Positions 25,082 through 52,449 of a stretch of 64,000 nt of DNA are shown here, one piece after another. The notes beneath the pieces were generated by a model, which worked only from the letters and a program-made list of their open reading frames with translations, was not told the origin of the DNA and ran no database searches. Position numbers and translations under genes: made by a program. The DNA is from an uncultured Rhizobium sp. (GTDB lineage Bacteria; Pseudomonadota; Alphaproteobacteria; Rickettsiales; UBA1997): positions 6,033 through 70,032 of the forward strand of contig CAYUHG010000001.1 of assembly GCA_964444545.1 (NCBI GenBank), read 5' to 3'. Position 1 is the stretch's first letter; every line of letters starts with the position of its first letter.

Positions 25082-26557
25082 ATGTTTCGAATTTCTGTCA
25101 TCATTTTTTCGCTTTTAGCTCTTTGCGCTCAGGCCGCAATTCCCGACAGTTTGGATCAAATTAATGCCGATCTTTTAGCTAAAAAAGCCAAAGCCGAACC
25201 TTTTAAAGACAAGGATGTAAAAGTTGATTTAGAATCTTTGGGACTTGATGAAATTGATGCCAAAGATGCAAAAATCGCCGCTGAAAATGCTCCGGAAAAA
25301 CCAGCGCCAGTAGTTAATACCTTAACAGCTGAAGACTTACCTGATCCGAAAAAAACCGAGATCAAAAAATCGCAATTAATCGCTCCAACAAAAGAAGAAA
25401 AATCAGTAGCGCCAATCGTTACAATGGAAGATAAAATCAGAGAAGCGCGCAAAAAAATTAAAGTTGAAAGTCCAGCAACATCTAAAGCTGAAAACTCAAT
25501 CAATGATAAATCTGATAAAGATGCTCAAAAAGCTGAGTTACCGACTGAAGTTAAAGCTGCACCTGGTGTAGAAGCGGCGCCAACAGTTGTTACACCATCT
25601 GAAATTAATAAAAATTCTGAACAAAACTCAGTTGAAACAGTCGCGACTAAAAAAGAGTCAAAAGCTAAAGAGGCTTACATAAATTCTCAAAAAAAGCAGA
25701 ATCTAAAAAAACAACTCGCCGCTAAAAAAGCTGCTAAAAAGAAAGCTGAAGAAAATGAAAAGAAGCGTAAAGAGAAATTGAAAAAACTTAATCAATTACG
25801 TGAAAAATACCTTATTAAAATCAACACTGATAAGTCTTTGGATAGCAAGATTCTTGATGAAGATTTATCAGATATCGATGAAAAAATCATACCGCAAAAA
25901 AAGGATATCAATAAATTTGTATCTTACGAAAGACCAGCTCCGCCAATTTTAGATCGTTACAGAAATCGCGAAAATCAAGGAATTCCAATTGTGATCAGCA
26001 GAAAAGAGAAAGCTGATATTTTATTCAGATCAATTGGTCAGGAAGATATATCGTTCTTCAACAGCGCTTACAATGACATCGAAGATCCTAATTTACGCAA
26101 TGATGTCGGAGATACAATTTTAACTTATGCGATTCTTTTACAAAAACGAGAAGTAGTCGCATCAATTTTGGCAAGAGGAGCTGATCCTGACCTGCCAAAC
26201 AAACTAGGTTATACACCTTTGCAAATTACCCTCGAGTCTTTGGATATCGCATCTTTTAATCTCGTAGTAAATGGTGGTGCCGACATTAACGCTGTCGATG
26301 GCTTTGGCAGAACTCCTTTAATGCACGCAGCTCGTCTTGGATTTCTAGCGGCAATTGACATACTAATCAAAAAGGGAGCTGATGTAAATGCTTTGGATTA
26401 TGATGGATTTAACGCTTTAGCTATCGCCAATAAATACCAACAAGATTTGGCCGTAACTCTATTGCTTAAGAATGGCGCTAAACCTTGGGTTGAAAAACCT
26501 TACGATCCAGAATCAGAATCTTTGATTAAACAATTAGACAACAAATGGAGACGATAG
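25082..26557 (+). CDS. Secreted ankyrin-repeat protein with a Lys/Ala/Glu-rich central region
   Basis: 491 aa with signal peptide MFRISVIIFSLLALCAQA. Charged low-complexity middle. C-terminal ANK repeats (GDTILTYA..., GYTPLQIT..., GRTPLMHAARLGFLAAIDILIKKGADVNA, GFNALAIA...). Confidence 0.8.
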   Translation: MFRISVIIFSLLALCAQAAIPDSLDQINADLLAKKAKAEPFKDKDVKVDLESLGLDEIDAKDAKIAAENAPEKPAPVVNTLTAEDLPDPKKTEIKKSQLIAPTKEEKSVAPIVTMEDKIREARKKIKVESPATSKAENSINDKSDKDAQKAELPTEVKAAPGVEAAPTVVTPSEINKNSEQNSVETVATKKESKAKEAYINSQKKQNLKKQLAAKKAAKKKAEENEKKRKEKLKKLNQLREKYLIKINTDKSLDSKILDEDLSDIDEKIIPQKKDINKFVSYERPAPPILDRYRNRENQGIPIVISRKEKADILFRSIGQEDISFFNSAYNDIEDPNLRNDVGDTILTYAILLQKREVVASILARGADPDLPNKLGYTPLQITLESLDIASFNLVVNGGADINAVDGFGRTPLMHAARLGFLAAIDILIKKGADVNALDYDGFNALAIANKYQQDLAVTLLLKNGAKPWVEKPYDPESESLIKQLDNKWRR

Positions 26558-26595
26558 CGATTTTGTTGAAAAATCGGTTAATTTTTTCTGGCAAA

Positions 26596-26615
26596 AATGA
26601 TTTTTAAAAATCATT
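26596..26615. promoter_or_regulatory. Perfect 20-bp palindrome AATGATTTTTAAAAATCATT upstream of the second ankyrin gene (candidate operator)
   Basis: Read directly. A 14-nt half-site copy TTTTTAAAAATCAT recurs at 26697-26710, about 15 nt before the ORF start. Confidence 0.3.
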
Positions 26616-26724
26616 CTCTGCTCGTCAAATTTTGCTGCGTTATTCTTGAAACCAAAATAACTAGCAAATCCTTTACTTTACTGGGCTTAAGTAGCTTTTT
26701 AAAAATCATCAATAAAATCTTTCC

Positions 26725-28314
26725 TTGTTTAAGATTAGGGTAAACAAAACCAAAAGCAGAAAATACTTCTTATTGTCTGTGTTTTTTGCCTGCGCTTCTG
26801 TCTCAGCAATATTGGTGGGAAGTCAGGCATTAATTGCACAGATTAAGAATATTTATAACGAAGATTCCGACCAAATCGCTGGCTTGAACTCTTTGATGTC
26901 AGCGGTCGCGGCTAATGACATCAGTGGTGTTAGATTCTTCAGTAAAGCTGGTGGCTCTCTCATTAATCAAAAAAATATTGGTGGTGCAACAGCACTTCAT
27001 ATAGCTGCACGCGAGAAAAATCTCGATATCACTCAAATGCTGATAGACAACGGCGCCGATGTTAACGTCGCAGATAATGAAGGCTGGACTCCACTAATGC
27101 GTGCCACAATGGCCGGATCATCTGATATAGTTGAACTTCTTTTGAATAAAAATGCCGATGCAACTGCTTTGAACTCAGTTGGCGAATCTGTTATAATTCA
27201 CGCAACTATTTCTAATTGTAATGAATGTCTGGATTTGATGTTTGAAAAGTTCAATTTCATCAAAGCTATGGATGATTCTTCTCTTAGATCACAACTCCAA
27301 GATGCATTCACAATTGCCAGAAATCATGAAAATGAAGAAATTCAAGCCACTTTAGAAAAATATCTCGATCAAGTAGTTAAGCTATCAAACCTAGTAAAAC
27401 CTCAACTTATTGTTGAAGATATTGGCGAAAAAGATATTTCGATTATTGAAGATAATAAGCTTAACCTTGTGACCAAAAATAAAGGCAACAGCAAATTTGA
27501 AGAGAAGAATTTATCTGCAGATAACAATCATATTAAAGGTAAATTTAAGTTTACCGGCGATGCTTCTGGGATTGCTTCGAGTCAAGCAGAGGATGATACG
27601 GTTTATATTATCGATAACAATAAACCATTAAAATCCAAATCAGGAATTACTGACAAAAGAAATAAGTTTGTGTTAATTGTTGGCGCATCAAAAAGCGATC
27701 CTAAAGCTACAACAGATGTAATTACTAAAACATTCAAGCCTAGTGATAGTAATGCTGTATTTTTGAAAAATTCAAAAGTTGATGATACGTCAATTACTGA
27801 TATCTTAAAAAGTAGAAAGTTCAGATTCTCACAAGGCCCTAAGAGCACGGAAGTTGTAAAGAATAACTTCAAAATCGAAGGTGCTAAGTCTGAGGAACCT
27901 AAAGCCTTAAAAACTCAGCCCGAGAATAAATCTGAAGAAACTGCTCCAATTCCTCCGATCGTAAATAGCTTTAAACTTTTAAAAGGCCCAGTTGGCAAAA
28001 AAGACGAACAGCAAAAAACAGATCAGGGAGAAGATATAACTAATAATTCTAAGGCAGTACCAGCATTCATTTTCAAAAAAGAATCAGAGATATCTTCTTA
28101 CGGTTCTATGCCATTGGTCCCAGAAAAAATCACCGCAAAGAAAGAAAGTGCCGAAATTAACAAAGCCGATTTTAAGTTATCCAAAGGAAAAACTCCGGCA
28201 TTTAAAATTTCTGATGATGCCAAAGACATCATTATTGAGAAGAAAAGTTTTAAACTAAAAAAAGGTGAAGCCACAAAATCAGAATCAGATAACTCTAATG
28301 ATGAAATGCACTAA
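26725..28314 (+). CDS. Ankyrin-repeat protein with N-terminal signal/anchor and a repetitive Lys/Ser-rich C-terminal half
   Basis: 529 aa (TTG start in the ORF track, start uncertain). Hydrophobic YFLLSVFFACASVSAILVGSQALIA. ANK repeats (GGATALHIAAREKNLDITQMLIDNGADVNV, GWTPLMRATMAGSSDIVELLLNKNAD). 7-9 copies of an F-[KRI]-[FLI]-x-x-G motif. Confidence 0.75.
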   Translation: MFKIRVNKTKSRKYFLLSVFFACASVSAILVGSQALIAQIKNIYNEDSDQIAGLNSLMSAVAANDISGVRFFSKAGGSLINQKNIGGATALHIAAREKNLDITQMLIDNGADVNVADNEGWTPLMRATMAGSSDIVELLLNKNADATALNSVGESVIIHATISNCNECLDLMFEKFNFIKAMDDSSLRSQLQDAFTIARNHENEEIQATLEKYLDQVVKLSNLVKPQLIVEDIGEKDISIIEDNKLNLVTKNKGNSKFEEKNLSADNNHIKGKFKFTGDASGIASSQAEDDTVYIIDNNKPLKSKSGITDKRNKFVLIVGASKSDPKATTDVITKTFKPSDSNAVFLKNSKVDDTSITDILKSRKFRFSQGPKSTEVVKNNFKIEGAKSEEPKALKTQPENKSEETAPIPPIVNSFKLLKGPVGKKDEQQKTDQGEDITNNSKAVPAFIFKKESEISSYGSMPLVPEKITAKKESAEINKADFKLSKGKTPAFKISDDAKDIIIEKKSFKLKKGEATKSESDNSNDEMH

Positions 28315-28651: not shown

Positions 28652-28738
28652 GCCTCTGTGGCGGAATTGGTAGACGCGATAGACTCAAAATCTATTGTCC
28701 CCTGGGACGTGTCCGTTCGATTCGGATCGGAGGTACCA
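28652..28738 (+). tRNA. tRNA-Leu (anticodon CAA), with encoded CCA
   Basis: Acceptor GCCTCTG/CGGAGGT (includes G-U pairs). D-arm GGCGGAATTGGTAGACGC. Anticodon stem ATAGA/TCTAT with loop CTCAAAA. Long variable arm. T-arm GTTCGATTC. 87 nt. Confidence 0.9.
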
Positions 28739-28754
28739 CACATATATAAGCAGA

Positions 28755-29552
28755 ATGTTCAATTTGGTTGATCTCTTCAAAGCCGTATTCCTTGGAATTG
28801 TTGAAGGATTAACCGAATTTTTGCCGGTGTCATCAACTGCACATTTGCTTATCTCGTCTTATCTAATCGATTTTCAATCGATCCAAAATAATCTTTTCGA
28901 AATTGTTATTCAGATTGGCGCTATTCTTGCAGTTTGCGTGATTTACCGCAAAAAAATCTTCGACGTAATTTTGAACTTACACCAAAAAACCAATCAAAAA
29001 TTTGCCATCAACTTGGCCTTAGCATTTTTACCTGCAATGGTTATCGGCGGGCTTTTTCATAATCAGATCAAAACAATTTTCTTTTCCAATTTAGTTATCG
29101 CCATCGCACTAATTGTTGGCGGCATCATCATGATCGTTGTCGAATCTAAACCAAAAGAATCAAGCGTTGAAGACATTAACAATATCAGTGCCAAACAAGC
29201 ATTTTTCGTTGGTCTATTTCAATGTCTTGCTATGATTCCAGGAACTTCACGCTCTGGTGCCACAATTATCGGCGCACTTTTGCTCAAATTTAATCGTAAA
29301 GTTGCGACGGAATTCTCTTTCTTTTTAGCCATTCCCACAATCTTTGCTGCTACAGCTTTTGATTTACTAAAAAACCTCAATGAAATTTCAACTTCTAGCC
29401 TAGAACTAATTGTGGTTGGAACTCTAGCCGCATTTGTTTCGGCAATTTTGGTCATCAAATGGTTTATTGGTTTTGTCAGCAAACATAATTTTATACCATT
29501 TGGCATCTACAGAATTGTTGCTGGAATCATTATACTGATTTTTATTATTTAA
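28755..29552 (+). CDS. uppP: Undecaprenyl-diphosphatase
   Basis: Conserved GIVEGLTEFLPVSSTAHL and PGTSRSGATI. Start moved to the ATG at 28755, because the ORF-track start at 28695 lies inside tRNA-Leu. Confidence 0.9.
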   Translation: MFNLVDLFKAVFLGIVEGLTEFLPVSSTAHLLISSYLIDFQSIQNNLFEIVIQIGAILAVCVIYRKKIFDVILNLHQKTNQKFAINLALAFLPAMVIGGLFHNQIKTIFFSNLVIAIALIVGGIIMIVVESKPKESSVEDINNISAKQAFFVGLFQCLAMIPGTSRSGATIIGALLLKFNRKVATEFSFFLAIPTIFAATAFDLLKNLNEISTSSLELIVVGTLAAFVSAILVIKWFIGFVSKHNFIPFGIYRIVAGIIILIFII

Positions 29553-29555
29553 TTT

Positions 29556-30746
29556 ATGTCGCAAGAAACTGCTCATAAATTTGCCATCAGATTTGGACTT
29601 GGAGCCATTAAAGCCGTAGGTTTTGGCATGATGGAAAACGCCATAAAAGAACGCAAAGAAAACGGAAAGTTTAAAGATATCTACGATTTTGCCGAACGAC
29701 TTGATCCACGATCAATCAACAAAAAATCCATCGAAGCTTTAGCCAAAGCCGGCGCTTTTGATTTGTTAAACAACAATCGCCGCCAAATTTCTGAATCTTT
29801 CGACACCCTTTCCTCTTATTCAGCACAGCAAAGCGAAGCTGCTTCGTCAAATCAAATGAGTCTTTTTGGCGGATTGCCCGAAGCCAATAAAAAACCCGAG
29901 TTAAAAAAAGTCGAAAATTGGAGCCGAGTTGAACGCTTACAAAAAGAATTTGAAGCCTTCGGATTTTTCTTAAATGAACATCCAGTTGACGAATTTATAC
30001 CTGATCTCAAAAAACGCGGCGTAATTTTTTCCGATAAAATCGAGCGTGACGAACTTCAAGATAATAATTTAGTAAAAATGTCCGGCGTTGTGGCTGGCAG
30101 CAAACATCGCTCTGGCCCTCGCGGACGTTTCGCTTATTTGACGATGTCTGATCCGCTAGGAATTTATGAAGCGATGATTTTTGACGAAGCATTAATTACC
30201 AACGCCCGCGATTTGTTGGTCGATGGCAGTATGGTAACTCTAGAATGTTTGATCCGCAAAGATGATGGCGGAATCAGAATTTTAGTACGTGACGTTAAAA
30301 AGCTCGAAGACTTTATCCGAATCACTCCGGCTCGCAATGAAGATTTCGAAGACATCAAACAACAACCAGCGCGCCGTGAATATAATCGCGATCGCAATTC
30401 CGATTCTAATGCGCCAAAAAACTTTGAGCGCAAAACTTTTGAAAAGAAACCCGCCGCAACTCAAGAAACTTCACATCAAGATAAGATCGAAGCTTTGAAA
30501 GCTAAAAAAATTCTTCCTGCAGTACAAATTATTTTGAAAGAGCGCGATGCACTTATTGGAATTAAGTCCCTGCTCTCTCAACGCCTTGCGCCGCAAGATT
30601 TTGAAAAATTCACCAAAGTTTATTTTGTTGTTATGAGAAATGGAAAAATAACTAAAATTGAACTCAACGAAAAATATTTAATCGATAATGCCGACATTCT
30701 AAAAATGCGCTCAGTTAGCGGCATTATTGATGTTGAAGCTTGCTAG
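29556..30746 (+). CDS. dnaE: Stand-alone C-terminal portion of DNA polymerase III alpha subunit (HhH + OB-fold + C-terminal tail); split gene or truncated remnant
   Basis: 396 aa starting at IRFGLGAIKAVG (the DnaE HhH region). OB-fold LVKMSGVVAGSKHRSGPRGRFAYLTMSDPLGIYEAMIF. The PHP and polymerase core are absent, and the upstream gene is uppP. Confidence 0.6.
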   Translation: MSQETAHKFAIRFGLGAIKAVGFGMMENAIKERKENGKFKDIYDFAERLDPRSINKKSIEALAKAGAFDLLNNNRRQISESFDTLSSYSAQQSEAASSNQMSLFGGLPEANKKPELKKVENWSRVERLQKEFEAFGFFLNEHPVDEFIPDLKKRGVIFSDKIERDELQDNNLVKMSGVVAGSKHRSGPRGRFAYLTMSDPLGIYEAMIFDEALITNARDLLVDGSMVTLECLIRKDDGGIRILVRDVKKLEDFIRITPARNEDFEDIKQQPARREYNRDRNSDSNAPKNFERKTFEKKPAATQETSHQDKIEALKAKKILPAVQIILKERDALIGIKSLLSQRLAPQDFEKFTKVYFVVMRNGKITKIELNEKYLIDNADILKMRSVSGIIDVEAC

Positions 30747-31336
30747 AACTCAGCACGAGTTTTGAAAGCAATCGAAATTGTACCTTCATCCAGATAATCC
30801 AACTCACTTCCGACCGGAATTCCGTAGGCCAAACGGGTCACTTTTACGTTAAAGTCTTTCAACCCTTCTGCCAAAAAATGCGCCGTAGTTTGACCATCAA
30901 TGGTAGCGCTGGTTGCAATGATAACCTCTTTCACTTCAGAATTTCTTAATCGACTGAATAATTTCTCTAAATTCAAATCTTCGATTGATACTCCCGAAAT
31001 TGCCGAAAGTTTTCCACCCAAAATGTGGTAACGACCTTTGTAATTTTCGGCACGCTCAATTGCCCATAAATCTGCCACTTCTTCGACTACACAAATCACA
31101 CTTTGATCACGATTGTGATTATTACAAATTCCGCACACCCTGCCTTCATCAAGGTTGCCACAGGTTTCGCAATTATGAATTTTTTCATTTAGCGCCAGCA
31201 AATTTTCAATTAGAGGTAGCAAAGTTTTTTCTTTATTCGCCGCTAAATGTAAGACAACACGCTTTGCAACTCTAGGCCCCATACCTGGAAGTTTTGAAAT
31301 AATTTTGCTGAGATTTTCAATAATATTGGTCTGCAT
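30743..31336 (-). CDS. recR: Recombination protein RecR
   Basis: LPGMGPRVAKR HhH, Zn finger CETCGN...CGIC, Toprim CVVEEVADLWAIE. Start set at the internal ATG (MQTNIIENL). Confidence 0.9.
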   Translation of the reverse strand: MQTNIIENLSKIISKLPGMGPRVAKRVVLHLAANKEKTLLPLIENLLALNEKIHNCETCGNLDEGRVCGICNNHNRDQSVICVVEEVADLWAIERAENYKGRYHILGGKLSAISGVSIEDLNLEKLFSRLRNSEVKEVIIATSATIDGQTTAHFLAEGLKDFNVKVTRLAYGIPVGSELDYLDEGTISIAFKTRAEF

Positions 31337-31536
31337 TTTGTATTTTAAAAATGTGTAAGAAGTCGCGATTTTTATAGGTTGTGATGAAAGTCTCAAGCCT
31401 CTCATAGAAAACAAATGGACCCCGTTGCATGACGTGGTCCAGCAATTAAATAATTTGACGTTTGTTTCATTCTTAAATTATTCTGCACCACGCAAACACC
31501 ACTGCATTTTCACCAACTTACACACACTTTGTCACT

Positions 31537-33316: not shown

Positions 33317-33751
33317 ATGTCATTCGTAACAGCTATTACCCCAAAAGAAGCTTTTGAGCTTTTGAAAAAAGATACTTTTTCTGTACTTGTAGATGTCAGA
33401 ACTCTTGAAGAGTTCGCATCTATCGGCACCGTAAACCCTGAGGAATTCAACAACCGTATGGTTTTGCTTCCTTGGCAGTTAATGCCTACAATGGAGGTTA
33501 ATGAATCTTTCGAAGATCAATTAAACGAAGAAACCAACAAACTTTTTGGTGACAAAGCTCAAGAAGCTAAAATTATTTTCATGTGCCGCAGCGGTGCTAG
33601 ATCATATCAAGCTGCTAACCACTCTTTGATGAACGGCTATAAACATTGCTACAACCTAACCAACGGATTTGAAGGCGATATTAACGACTCTGGACAAAGA
33701 GGACAAGTCAACGGCTGGAAAGCTGAATCTCTACCTTGGGAGCAAAAATAA
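33317..33751 (+). CDS. Rhodanese-domain protein
   Basis: 144 aa. LVDVRTLEEF and active-site loop CRSGARS. Confidence 0.7.
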   Translation: MSFVTAITPKEAFELLKKDTFSVLVDVRTLEEFASIGTVNPEEFNNRMVLLPWQLMPTMEVNESFEDQLNEETNKLFGDKAQEAKIIFMCRSGARSYQAANHSLMNGYKHCYNLTNGFEGDINDSGQRGQVNGWKAESLPWEQK

Positions 33752-35172
33752 TGACTCCGGAAGTGCTTTTAGCACAATCAATCCAAGATCAGTCGTCAAA
33801 CTTCCTGCCGGATTTCTTCAAATCTTGTCGCGCCGAATTTGGTGAAGATAACTTCACTAAATGGTTTTCCGAACTTGAAATTGCATCAATCTCAAGCAGC
33901 GAAGTTATTTTTAATGCCCCATCAAAATTCGTTCGCGATTGGATTATCCGCGAATTTGTTGAATCAAAATCATGGAGAAAAAATCTTAAAGCAGTAGCTT
34001 TAGACTTACTTCCACAGCTAAAAAGAATCTCTGTAATTCATATCGCTAAACCAAGCGCTGAAATTTTCGAACCTAAAGTCAATACTGACCAAAAAGTTGT
34101 CAGCATCTCTAAGCATGACAATCTTTTTGCTTTTGGAACTGAGTTAAATCCACGCTATACTTTCCAAAATTTCGTCAGCGCTAAATACAATAAAATGGCA
34201 CTTTCGATGGCTAAAATTGCCGCCGGAATTGATGCTCAAATTAATTTATTCGACGACAAAATCCCGCTTTTCATTCACGGCAATGTTGGAATTGGTAAAA
34301 GTCACTTGGCACAAGCAATTGCTTGGCAAATCAAAGAATCTGACAAATCGAAAAAAGTGGTTTATTTGTCAGCTGAGAAATTCATGTTCCATTTCGTACA
34401 GTCGATTCGCAACGGCGGCGCGATGGAATTCAAAGAAAAAATGCGTTCAATTGATGTGCTGATTGTTGATGACGTTCAGTTTATCGCCGGCAAAGAAAGC
34501 ACTCAGCAAGAATTTATGAACAGCTTCAACCATCTTGTCGAAGAAAATAAACAAGTGGTTTTGGTGTGCGATCGTCGCCCTTCTGACCTTGAAAATATTG
34601 ATGAAAAGCTGAAGTCGAGAATTGCTGGCGGCATGATCATCAACTTCAAAAATCCTGATTACCAAGACCGTCTAGAAATTTTGAAAGCTAAAGCAGCGCA
34701 GATGGAACAAGAAATTTGCCCGAAAGTTTTAAGCTATTTAGCCGAAAAAATTACTACTAACGTTCGCGATCTTGAAGGTGCTTTGCGCAAATTAGTTTGC
34801 AGTAAAGTTTTAGACGATGCCGAAGTTACTTTAGAAAATGCTCGTGAAGTTTTAGCCGATTATATTCGCGCTTCTAATGCTACTGCGCCAACAATTCAAA
34901 AAATTCAAAAAGAAGTTGCACAATTTTATAATCTTAAAGTTGCTGATTTGTCTTCGAGTAACCGCGCTCGTCAAATCGCACGTCCGCGCCAAATCGCGAT
35001 GTATTTGTCAAAAATTCTAACTACAGAAAGCTTGCCAACAATCGGCAAAGAATTTGGCGGCAAGAATCACGCTACTGTGATTCACTCAGTTAAAACTGTG
35101 CAAGAATTGATGAACTCAGATCAAAACATCTTGCAGGAAGTCAAATCTCTAGAAGAGAAAATCAGAGGATAA
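33751..35172 (+). CDS. dnaA: Chromosomal replication initiator protein DnaA
   Basis: AAA+ Walker A GNVGIGKSHL, DDVQF, and C-terminal DNA-binding domain ARPRQIAMYL...GGKNHATVIH. The ATG at 33751 overlaps the rhodanese stop (TAATG). An alternative TTG lies at 33736. Confidence 0.95.
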   Translation: MTPEVLLAQSIQDQSSNFLPDFFKSCRAEFGEDNFTKWFSELEIASISSSEVIFNAPSKFVRDWIIREFVESKSWRKNLKAVALDLLPQLKRISVIHIAKPSAEIFEPKVNTDQKVVSISKHDNLFAFGTELNPRYTFQNFVSAKYNKMALSMAKIAAGIDAQINLFDDKIPLFIHGNVGIGKSHLAQAIAWQIKESDKSKKVVYLSAEKFMFHFVQSIRNGGAMEFKEKMRSIDVLIVDDVQFIAGKESTQQEFMNSFNHLVEENKQVVLVCDRRPSDLENIDEKLKSRIAGGMIINFKNPDYQDRLEILKAKAAQMEQEICPKVLSYLAEKITTNVRDLEGALRKLVCSKVLDDAEVTLENAREVLADYIRASNATAPTIQKIQKEVAQFYNLKVADLSSSNRARQIARPRQIAMYLSKILTTESLPTIGKEFGGKNHATVIHSVKTVQELMNSDQNILQEVKSLEEKIRG

Positions 35173-50174: not shown

Positions 50175-51326
50175 TTACAAAATTTTTAAAATTTCCTTAG
50201 CAGCTTTAAAACTAGGATTTTCAAGACTTTCCAGTCCCATTTCTTTTAAAGATGATACGCTTTCATCAAGTTGTTTTTGCGCTAAATTTTTATCGTTAAT
50301 TAATTTTTCCATCTCATGAAAAAGCAAATCTGAACGGCATTTATCCTGCAACATTTCCGGAATTATTTCACGGTTGGAAATTAAATTTATCAGATTGGCA
50401 AATTTAATTTTTACCATTCTTTTGACGATAAAATGAGTAATAAAGTTAATCTTATAAGCGATCACCATCGGCAAACGATAAAGCGAGATTTCAACTGTAT
50501 TGGTGCCCGATTTGGCAAAAGCAAAATCAGCAGCAAAAAAAGCTGAATTTTTCTCTGTTTTTTCGATTAAAAAATATGGCACTTTTAAATCTTTTGCCAT
50601 TTCAGTTACAAGATTTCGCGTTTTGTCGATCAACGGAATTATAACTTTCAAATCACGTTTTTTTTCCGCCAATAAATTTATCGCACCAATAAATTCTGGA
50701 AAAATTTTACCAACTTCACCATTACGACTTCCAGGTGTTAAAAGCACTACTGTTGAGTTCTCAGCGATTTTATATTTTGCACGAAATTCACTTCTGATTT
50801 GTGGTTTTTGCGAAAAATCAGGCGCATTTTCAACAATCGGACTGCCGATAAAAACTGTCTTCAAACCATATTTTTCAAAGTATGGCGGCTCGAATGGAAG
50901 GATTGCTAAAAGCAAATCGTAAAGCTTGGAAATTTTTTCTGCTCGACCTTCGCGATAAGCCCAGACTGATGGCGCGATCATGTGAACTTTTTTCACTGAT
51001 TTGAAATCACGCAATTTTTTCATCACACGGAAACAAAAATCTGGCGAATCAATTGTAATCACCACATCTGGCTTTTCGGACTTTACCACTTCTGCCGTTT
51101 GATTAATGCGTTTGAGCAATTTTGGAATATGCGGCAGAACTTCTAAAAATCCCATAACCGACAATTCTTCCATCGCAAAAATTGATTTTAATCCTTGTTC
51201 TTTCATCAAGGTTCCACCTACTCCGATAAACTCCGATTCGGGATTCTGCGCTTTTAATTCTTTAATCAATTTCGCTCCAAGCAAATCACCCGAAGCTTCG
51301 CCAGCGATGACGAAAAATTTTTTCAT
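50175..51326 (-). CDS. lpxB: Lipid-A-disaccharide synthase
   Basis: 383 aa. FVIAGEASGD, IDSPDF, PSVWAYREGR, SGT...E. Confidence 0.85.
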   Translation of the reverse strand: MKKFFVIAGEASGDLLGAKLIKELKAQNPESEFIGVGGTLMKEQGLKSIFAMEELSVMGFLEVLPHIPKLLKRINQTAEVVKSEKPDVVITIDSPDFCFRVMKKLRDFKSVKKVHMIAPSVWAYREGRAEKISKLYDLLLAILPFEPPYFEKYGLKTVFIGSPIVENAPDFSQKPQIRSEFRAKYKIAENSTVVLLTPGSRNGEVGKIFPEFIGAINLLAEKKRDLKVIIPLIDKTRNLVTEMAKDLKVPYFLIEKTEKNSAFFAADFAFAKSGTNTVEISLYRLPMVIAYKINFITHFIVKRMVKIKFANLINLISNREIIPEMLQDKCRSDLLFHEMEKLINDKNLAQKQLDESVSSLKEMGLESLENPSFKAAKEILKIL

Positions 51327-51406
51327 TTTTAATTTTAGATTCTTGTTTTACATTGAAGCGCGTGAACGCTGTTTCGGCTTTCGCAATTCATCACAATCTA
51401 AAATCA

Positions 51407-51419
51407 AAATCTTAAATCA
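51407..51419 (+). promoter_or_regulatory. Recurrent upstream motif AAAATCTTAAATC
   Basis: Lies 13 nt upstream of the asd ATG. TTTTAGATTCTT on the lpxB side (51333-51344) is identical to the 12-mer next to folC (3027-3038). Confidence 0.35.
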
Positions 51420-51432
51420 AAAATTAAATATT

Positions 51433-52449
51433 ATGGCTCGTCGTAAAATTGCCGTTGCTGGCGCGACCGGAAATGTTGGTCGTGAAATTTTAAATATTTT
51501 AGCAGAAAGAAAATTCCCTGCTGATGAAGTTGTTGCCTTAGCTTCTGCTAACTCTTTAGGCAAAAAAGTTTCTTACGGCGATAAGGAATTGACGGTACAA
51601 GTTTTGGATGATTACGACTTTACGGGAACATCAATTGGCCTGTTTTCTCCTGGCGGAAAAGTTTCTGCAATTCACGCTCCACGTGCTGCAGCTCAGGGTT
51701 GCGTTGTAGTTGACAATACTTCGCATTTCAGAATGGAAAAAGATATTCCGTTAGTTGTTCCTGAAGTTAATCCAGAAGCGATCGCGGATTACAAAAAACG
51801 CGGTATCATCGCCAATCCAAACTGCTCAACAATTCAAATGGTTGTAGCTTTAAAACCACTTCACGATATTGCAAAAATCAAACGTATTGTGGTTTCAACT
51901 TACCAAGCCGTTTCTGGTGCTGGTAAAGAAGCGATGGATGAACTTTACGATTCAACTAAAAAAATCTATGCTAACCAATTTTTGGAACCAAAAAAATTCA
52001 GTAAAAGAATTGCTTTCAACGTAATTCCTCAAATCGACGTTTTCATGGATGACGGCGTTACTAAAGAAGAATGGAAAATGAAAGTTGAGACCCAAAAAAT
52101 CTTGGATCCAAACATTAAAGTTGAAGCAACTTGTGTTCGTGTTCCAGTTTTCAACTGTCACTCTGAAGCGATCAACGTTGAATTTGAAAAACCAATTTCT
52201 GCCGCGCAAGCTCGCAAAATTTTGGATGAATCTGACGGCGTAGTTGTGATTGATCGTCCGCAAGAAATGAAATTTGTAACTCCAGTTGAAGTTTCAACTC
52301 AAGATCCAGTTTTCGTTTCAAGAATCCGTGAAGATAAATCAGTTGCGCATGGTCTGTCGCTTTGGGTTGTTTCTGACAACTTAAGAAAAGGTGCAGCTCT
52401 AAACGCAGTTCAAATCGCGGAGCTTTTAGTTAAGAAACACGGTTTGTAA
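51433..52449 (+). CDS. asd: Aspartate-semialdehyde dehydrogenase
   Basis: MARRKIAVAGATGNVGRE, the active-site context IANPNCSTI, and YQAVSGAG. The ORF-track start at 51106 is an antisense extension over lpxB. Confidence 0.9.
   Translation: MARRKIAVAGATGNVGREILNILAERKFPADEVVALASANSLGKKVSYGDKELTVQVLDDYDFTGTSIGLFSPGGKVSAIHAPRAAAQGCVVVDNTSHFRMEKDIPLVVPEVNPEAIADYKKRGIIANPNCSTIQMVVALKPLHDIAKIKRIVVSTYQAVSGAGKEAMDELYDSTKKIYANQFLEPKKFSKRIAFNVIPQIDVFMDDGVTKEEWKMKVETQKILDPNIKVEATCVRVPVFNCHSEAINVEFEKPISAAQARKILDESDGVVVIDRPQEMKFVTPVEVSTQDPVFVSRIREDKSVAHGLSLWVVSDNLRKGAALNAVQIAELLVKKHGL

Follow-up and report, generated by a model that had tools for sequence, protein, structure and literature searches.

In the uncultured bacterium represented by contig CAYUHG010000001.1 (GTDB lineage UBA1997, Rickettsiales), and in the whole of the surrounding clade, dnaE, the gene encoding the α subunit of DNA polymerase III (Pol III), has undergone a genuine and ancient division into two genes. 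One of these, dnaE-C, lies at 29556..30746 on the forward strand of the 64 kb stretch of this contig (positions 6,033 to 70,032) that was analysed, hereafter the window; it has its own ATG start and encodes a 396 aa stand-alone C-terminal module of α. The first-pass annotation, made from the sequence alone, had recognised this open reading frame (ORF) as the C-terminal third of DnaE and had noted that the PHP domain and polymerase core were missing from the surrounding DNA; indeed, neither an ORF search nor tblastn found a match to them anywhere in the 64 kb. Three readings had been offered: a gene divided into separately encoded pieces, a remnant accompanied by an intact dnaE elsewhere, or a truncated replicase. 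The first is borne out by the identification of a complementary gene of around 830 codons, dnaE-N. The second does not agree with what was found elsewhere, which is the complementary half and not a full-length gene, nor with the clade-wide occurrence of the stand-alone form, and the third falls with the presence of both halves. What had been overlooked is that the cut lies inside a domain, at the turn of a β-hairpin, that there is no intein, and that the split extends across a family.

A stand-alone C-terminal module of DnaE

Pfam, NCBIfam and phmmer searches against the PDB all agree on the identity of the dnaE-C product. The helix-hairpin-helix (HhH) region, at 29580..29786 (+), matches the Pfam HHH_6 profile over residues 9-77 (E 1.9e-21), covering profile positions 21-89 only, and the match to the NCBIfam DnaE equivalog PRK05673 runs over positions 820-1129 of 1146. 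Residues 11-252 align to residues 831-1075 of the Escherichia coli α subunit and 887-1128 of that from Thermus aquaticus (Taq) in the PDB (5FKU and 3E0D). The OB fold, at 30078..30305 (+), is detected as Pfam tRNA_anti-codon at residues 175-250, appears as a β-barrel spanning residues 171-249 in the AlphaFold2 (AF2) model, and has OB-fold matches in Foldseek. Following a low-complexity linker (residues 274-305) is the C-terminal domain (CTD), residues ~306-395, encoded at 30471..30740 (+) and delimited by AF2, which gives it a confident α/β fold, by Foldseek and by the NCBIfam profile; on the basis of its homology to the α CTD that binds τ in E. coli and Taq, it may be expected to bind τ here too. 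Hence the HhH, OB fold and CTD homology of DnaE1-type α is all present in this product, which is labelled 'hypothetical protein' in NCBI records.

Between the HhH region and the OB fold, at 29853..29867 (+), is the pentapeptide Q100-M-S-L-F104, which pairs in alignments with the internal β-clamp-binding motif of E. coli α, QADMF (920-924). Q100, M101, L103 and F104 are invariant among 62 clade sequences, and QMSLF is accordingly annotated as a putative β-clamp-binding motif. When modelled alone, DnaE-C has a mean predicted local distance difference test score (pLDDT) of 72.7, with residues 1-20 below 50 and the remainder folded. The best Foldseek matches of this model are 4IQJ, 2HPI, 7PU7 and 5FKU, and it superposes on the Taq, Mycobacterium tuberculosis and E. 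coli α subunits across around 390 columns, CTD included.

The complementary gene and the site of the break

To find the missing half, the nearest intact relative (P0137, 1258 aa) was taken and its first 845 residues were used as a query. Around 50 intact proteins ranked ahead of a group of more than 60 proteins, each 829-843 aa long, that carry the PHP, DNA_pol3_alpha and finger domains and are without HHH_6. When one of these from the clade (P0361) was itself used as a query, the best 120 homologues were all 797-856 aa long. These DnaE-N sequences end in ...LPPDINxSEAYFSVEK[I/IS/LS]. The product in the window organism is P0472, of 830 aa, with Pfam matches to PHP, DNA_pol3_alpha and DNA_pol3_finger and an intact catalytic Asp triad, D411/D413/D567 pairing with D401/D403/D555 of E. 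coli. Joining P0472 to the window ORF gives a protein of 1226 aa that is collinear with E. coli α, at 40% identity over 1136 aligned residues, and with the intact relative P0306, at 55% identity. The products of dnaE-N and dnaE-C therefore tile a full DnaE exactly, with neither gap nor duplication.

The break aligns to a hairpin turn in E. coli α, YHFHV-NDDG-EIVYG (residues 821-834), the break itself corresponding to approximately residues 826-829. In the AF2 model of an intact relative (P0273, mean pLDDT 83.8), strands at residues 804-808 and 811-815 are connected by a two-residue turn, with block-mean pLDDT values of 89-94; on this model, DnaE-N would end with the first strand of the hairpin (...AYFSVEKI) and DnaE-C would open with the second (KFAIRFGLG). 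The latter, residues K8-G16 encoded at 29577..29603 (+), is the candidate docking element. A10, I11, R12, F13, G14 and G16 are invariant in the 62 clade sequences, and their pLDDT falls below 50 when DnaE-C is modelled in isolation. In the intact protein P0320, HHH_6 is found at residues 818-929, starting from profile position 1 and extending to 89, such that both strands are covered; in the split proteins the profile is divided at position 20/21, with positions 1-20 encoded at the end of dnaE-N. Since the two parts of HHH_6 lie on two genes, the cut is inside a domain and not at a linker. The closest intact relatives carry an insertion of 20-40 aa, rich in K, D and E, in exactly this turn, which indicates that the loop tolerates insertions.

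Neither DnaE-N nor DnaE-C has an intein or Hint domain detectable by Pfam. DnaE-N stops 1-5 residues past the conserved strand, and DnaE-C begins with 4-9 variable residues ahead of the next, all clade DnaE-C sequences opening with M-x(2-8)-K-[FYL]-AIRFGLGAIKAVG. There is thus no room for an intein, and no docking domain has been added at the new termini.

Conservation and distribution of the split gene

The exact window protein (P0482) occurs on 24 contigs in several assemblies, among them NCBI GCA_013582415.1 and GCA_013566075.1 and several Logan SRR100360xx runs, and an identical junction between the upstream gene uppP, dnaE-C and the downstream gene recR is present at all six places shown. 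An assembly error joining uppP to the middle of dnaE, which had been put forward as an outcome that would overturn the annotation, is hence contradicted by independent assemblies. Each of the best 120 homologues of the window ORF is 373-406 aa long and has an open frame, at identities from 95% down to 57%; the clade proteins as a whole range from 359 to 414 aa and share a common start point, which is unchanged in a library clustered at 50%, where the family extends down to 40% identity (P0122, P0124-P0128, P0132 and P0133). Comparison of the window gene with six relatives gave ratios of non-synonymous to synonymous substitution (dN/dS) of 0.07-0.19, with dS greater than one. Hence dnaE-C is under purifying selection, not evolving neutrally, and the first-pass argument that the open frame speaks against a long-dead pseudogene is upheld. 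Other matches of 350-390 aa were considered as a second stand-alone family and rejected, as they proved to be full-length genes cut by contig ends, with the ORFs called from an internal Met.

A scan of GTDB species genomes detected relatives of dnaE-C in 177 species, from which 80 loci were kept. At 77 of these the gene is stand-alone; two others (L094 and L096) are intact outgroup genes, and the last (L095) matches only in part, at the end of a contig. In none of the species represented by the 80 loci were a stand-alone and an intact copy found together. The same division is evident from the other half of the gene: metagenome loci with at least 67% identity to clade DnaE-N end at around 830 aa, with no dnaE-C following and mfd the next gene in most, and those with identity of 58% or less all have an intact dnaE. 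The split is therefore sharply clade-specific.

The clade is of family rank and comprises aquatic, mostly freshwater, relatives of Rickettsia with small genomes, one contig of a metagenome-assembled genome (MAG), CAXNJM010000001.1, being 1.2 Mb. It includes the four founding MAGs of Candidatus Gamibacteraceae, C-132, C-137, UBA2645 and RIFCSPLOWO2_01_FULL_40_26 (loci L083, L084, L020 and L051), as well as MAGs named UBA1997; relatives outside it have an intact dnaE. The window gene is closest to those of lake-derived MAGs, at 84% and 82% identity, and it is on DnaE-C similarity and common synteny alone that the window is placed in this family. Members of UBA1997 have been described as freshwater epibionts of cryptophyte algae that account for up to 4% of surface-water cells (10.1101/2023.01.31.526412, a 2023 preprint). 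Many of the clade MAGs (within L017-L093) have been deposited under implausible names, such as 'Rickettsia typhi', 'uncultured Rhizobium sp.', 'Rhizobium sp. Q54' and 'Ulvibacter sp.'.

Both halves occur in the same genomes. In the window organism they are more than 29 kb apart; P0482 and P0472 are both present in GCA_013566075.1 and in the SRR100360xx runs, and the longest contig is 224,200 bp for each. The contig CAYSUM010000002.1 (115,518 bp) carries the dnaE-C that is the closest GTDB relative of the window gene, and the longest contig for the DnaE-N protein P0396 is equally 115,518 bp; the two genes would be roughly 13 kb apart. Likewise, the longest contig is 107,587 bp for both P0002 (C) and P0474 (N). 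In the MAG JAGKWR01, dnaE-C is on contig 4 and dnaE-N on contig 9. Where the flank is long enough, dnaE-N is followed by mfd at most clade loci, with no more than a short spacer between the two genes in the relatives examined; in the window organism, a 425 aa antisense ORF with no Pfam match lies between them (L100, 12490-13767).

At two loci the halves are neighbours, which in around 78 genomes exceeds a rough estimate of chance for unlinked genes. One is L044 (CANEUK010000066.1, 2-3371), where dnaE-N (-) and dnaE-C (+) are divergent and around 160 bp apart, with no uppP upstream. The other is L012 (CAZOKU010000034.1, 1303-4953), where the order is uppP, dnaE-C, dnaE-N, mfd and the TAA of dnaE-C is directly followed by the in-frame ATG of dnaE-N (GTT ACA TAA ATG TAT). 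A single stop codon there parts what would be a circularly permuted α, on a single low-coverage MAG contig (5.9x). This order hints at an origin through tandem duplication followed by deletion, a circular permutation at the level of the gene, which the comparisons neither support nor exclude. A uppP-dnaE-mfd arrangement is not seen around the intact genes of the outgroups (P0137, P0306 and P0320), L012 branches from within the crown of the dnaE-C tree, and dnaE-C was found within 3 kb upstream of dnaE-N at none of around 30 metagenome dnaE-N loci; the L012 contig could also be a recent rearrangement or a chimera. A search for an intermediate, in which dnaE would be split in place and the N gene directly followed by the C gene, found none, the apparent candidate (L094) proving to be a single ORF of 1301 aa.

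Proposed reassembly of the replicase and alternative explanations

Given a break in the turn of a β-hairpin, with neither an intein nor a docking domain, non-covalent reassembly is the most likely fate of the two products, and it is highly probable that dnaE-N and dnaE-C together encode a heterodimeric α subunit of this kind. DnaE-N (~830 aa) would provide the PHP domain, palm, thumb and fingers, with the catalytic Asp triad, and DnaE-C the HhH duplex-binding region, the internal clamp-binding motif, the OB fold and the τ-binding CTD. The polypeptides would re-form the native intradomain interface at the hairpin, as in fragment complementation; DnaE-C would tether the catalytic core to duplex DNA, the β clamp and τ, and the two-subunit α would then bind β, τ and ε as usual. 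We infer both a physical association through the hairpin and a role for the pair as the sole replicase, and it is likely that the whole family replicates its chromosome with a heterodimeric Pol III α, the tethering subunit of which is made from the uppP operon. Several points weigh against this. The association of the two products and the activity of the pair are deduced from sequence and structural models, and a further C-family polymerase, either PolC or a second DnaE, might be encoded in the clade genomes. As the new termini carry no extra docking element, the affinity of the pieces would depend wholly on the native interface, and with dnaE-N and dnaE-C usually unlinked, stoichiometric expression is less obvious. 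Finally, the placement of both genes on one contig in the window organism is taken from the matching figures of 224,200 bp, together with the shared assemblies.

The same lack of linkage, with the genes in different operons (uppP-dnaE-C and dnaE-N-mfd), and the same plain termini would suit a pair of sub-functionalised proteins, in which DnaE-N is a self-sufficient distributive polymerase and DnaE-C a separate clamp-, τ- and DNA-binding factor, for instance an exchangeable processivity adaptor, that is not stably bound; moreover, every known partner-binding element is on DnaE-C and all of catalysis on DnaE-N. We nevertheless consider this unlikely, as the break cuts a β-hairpin within one domain, not between domains, and the first strand of DnaE-C is invariant yet predicted to be disordered alone, the signature of an obligate interface. 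Alternatively, the pair might be an accessory polymerase, the window ORF being part of a dispensable paralogue with an intact replicative dnaE or polC elsewhere. The scans of the clade covered contigs and not whole genomes, which leaves some room for such a gene; however, the 120 nearest homologues of clade DnaE-N are all pieces of around 830 aa, the four intact proteins looked up, out of the roughly 50 that ranked above the split pieces, all have different gene neighbourhoods, both pieces are strongly constrained with catalytic triad and clamp motif intact, and the genomes, in addition to lacking a second, intact copy at the 80 GTDB loci, are small. This makes it very improbable.

Trans-splicing, with the products ligated into one α chain, deserves mention because the split-intein dnaE of cyanobacteria is the only natural split dnaE in the literature searched. 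It can be given almost no weight here: besides the absence of a Hint domain, the termini reach only 1-9 residues past conserved α, and the N and C pieces sum to a normal α length with nothing left over. Just as hard to sustain is the proposal that dnaE-C is a pseudogene remnant, or a chimera created in assembly, which has nothing in its favour but the odd look of the locus at first sight. The junction recurs in both the NCBI and Logan data, uppP and dnaE-C adjoin each other at 63 of 75 clade loci, all of around 120 protein clusters have an open frame, and the low dN/dS, the spread of relatives across 177 species and the nature of the copy found elsewhere, a complementary half and not an intact gene, are all at odds with decay. 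A heterodimeric α thus remains the preferred explanation.

The joined pieces have the same domains in the same order as the canonical DnaE1 α subunits of E. coli, T. aquaticus and M. tuberculosis (PDB 5FKV, 2HPI/3E0D/4IQJ and 7PU7), which are single chains of around 1150-1250 aa, whereas here there are two polypeptides of 830 and 396 aa. The cyanobacterial dnaE-n and dnaE-c are likewise two distant genes, and the C piece similarly has the HhH, OB and CTD regions; in that system, however, the N piece ends in the intein half IntN and the C piece opens with the half IntC and a nucleophilic +1 residue. Both intein halves are absent from this clade, so that there is no trans-splicing. The lineages differ too, the present one being Rickettsiales-related Alphaproteobacteria, and the site of the break appears to be different. 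The window ORF matches positions 111-397 of the 449-residue NCBIfam DnaE model PRK07373, which we take to represent the cyanobacterial C piece; with the match beginning at position 111, the break here would be tens of residues further downstream. Intein-free natural splits that are non-covalent and lineage-wide are found in the Methanothermobacter PolB, which consists of two polypeptides, and in the RNA polymerase β' subunit of cyanobacteria and plastids, encoded by rpoC1 and rpoC2. These resemble the present case in that two genes encode the separate polypeptides of one essential polymerase subunit, although the enzyme families differ. In degenerate insect symbionts such as Vidania, dnaE is found as two ORFs through a frameshift (bioRxiv 10.1101/2025.05.16.654412). 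Those ORFs lie side by side in N-to-C order, the frameshift occurs in single genomes, and they have been regarded as potential pseudogenes or errors, whereas in this clade the pieces have clean boundaries, are not usually linked, and are retained across a family under purifying selection.

To our knowledge, an intein-free split of a bacterial C-family replicase has never been reported. Full-text searches of the literature returned only the cyanobacterial split-intein system and frameshift fragments, and two Rickettsiales phylogenomics preprints make no mention of dnaE or polymerase III; hence we found no published description of a canonical DnaE1 replicase that is naturally split without an intein and maintained in this form throughout a family. 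The Pol III α subunit has been treated as an indivisible chain, save for the intein-repaired cyanobacterial case, and comparative surveys discard fragments or re-join them (PMC3919608). If a two-subunit α is indeed assembled in this clade, this would be the first case of a bacterial replicative polymerase split without an intein, and would show that a replicase tolerates a cut inside its duplex- and clamp-binding region. The cell could in principle then adjust or swap the tethering module without altering the catalytic core, for example linking the processivity of the replicase to envelope synthesis via co-translation with UppP. Such a system would be a natural experiment on the communication between the core and the clamp- and τ-tethering module, as well as a ready-made and naturally validated split site for the engineering of Pol III. 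At a practical level, completeness and marker-gene tools built on the presence of a single dnaE may give the genomes of this clade wrong scores.

Genomic context of dnaE-C

The first-pass placement of dnaE-C, 3 nt after uppP with a tRNA-Leu gene before that, is confirmed. A tRNA-Leu(CAA) gene, located by ARAGORN at 28652..28738 (+), is directly upstream of uppP (28757..29552, +), which encodes a 265 aa undecaprenyl-diphosphatase (Pfam BacA, E 1e-83) and has its stop at 29552, 3 nt before the dnaE-C ATG. The start of uppP is taken to be the ATG at 28757, 18 nt past the tRNA, and not the TTG at 28695, which falls within the tRNA gene. On the other side is the convergent gene recR (30743..31405, -; 220 aa, Pfam Toprim_4, RecR_C and RecR_ZnF), which overlaps the dnaE-C stop by 4 nt. 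The two flanking genes are called at the same lengths, 265 and 220 aa, in L001. It is possible that the tRNA-Leu gene, uppP and dnaE-C share one transcription unit.

At 63 of the 75 clade loci having an upstream ORF, this is a member of the uppP family on the same strand. The exceptions are gyrA (L081 and L084), a COQ9-like gene (L059, L063 and L082), an unidentified ORF on the opposite strand (L026, L027, L030, L031 and L039) and the single cases of L044 and L067. When measured at 61 loci, the distance between the uppP stop and the dnaE-C start fell between -28 and +11 nt in 57, most commonly being +3, and the junctions include ATGA and TAATG overlaps. No sigma-70-like promoter was found between the two genes, and matches in the region are no commoner than in shuffled sequence. 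The short gap, the overlaps and the lack of a promoter-like site in between all fit with dnaE-C being a translationally coupled second cistron behind uppP. Downstream of dnaE-C, the clade loci have genes from 33 different clusters; with a neighbour this variable, recR can be regarded as outside the system. In one locus (L050, CANGNU010000140.1) the otherwise 3 nt gap between uppP and dnaE-C is occupied by a 182 nt spacer that forms a near-perfect long palindrome (GATTAGTGAGAAATTTTCGGTAGGAGAAATTTGATTGCCG ... CGGCAATCAAATTTCTCCTACCGAAAATTTCTCACTAATC) and looks like an insertion resembling a miniature inverted-repeat transposable element (MITE) or a repetitive extragenic palindromic (REP) sequence.

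Further afield, dnaA is found at 33736-35172 of the window; its position, just 3 kb downstream of dnaE-C, makes it probable that the locus is near the replication origin, although the GC skew has no clear switch at this point in a 2 kb profile. Just upstream of the tRNA gene, uppP and dnaE-C, at 25082-28314, are two ankyrin-repeat proteins of 491 and 529 aa with signal-peptide-like N termini, and the LigA-Ank-Ank block to which these belong is kept in the closest relative (L099), where dnaE-N is around 10 kb away. Elsewhere in the window, a 447 aa ORF at 51106-52449 (+) overlaps a 383 aa ORF on the opposite strand (50175-51326), and is probably a spurious antisense ORF.

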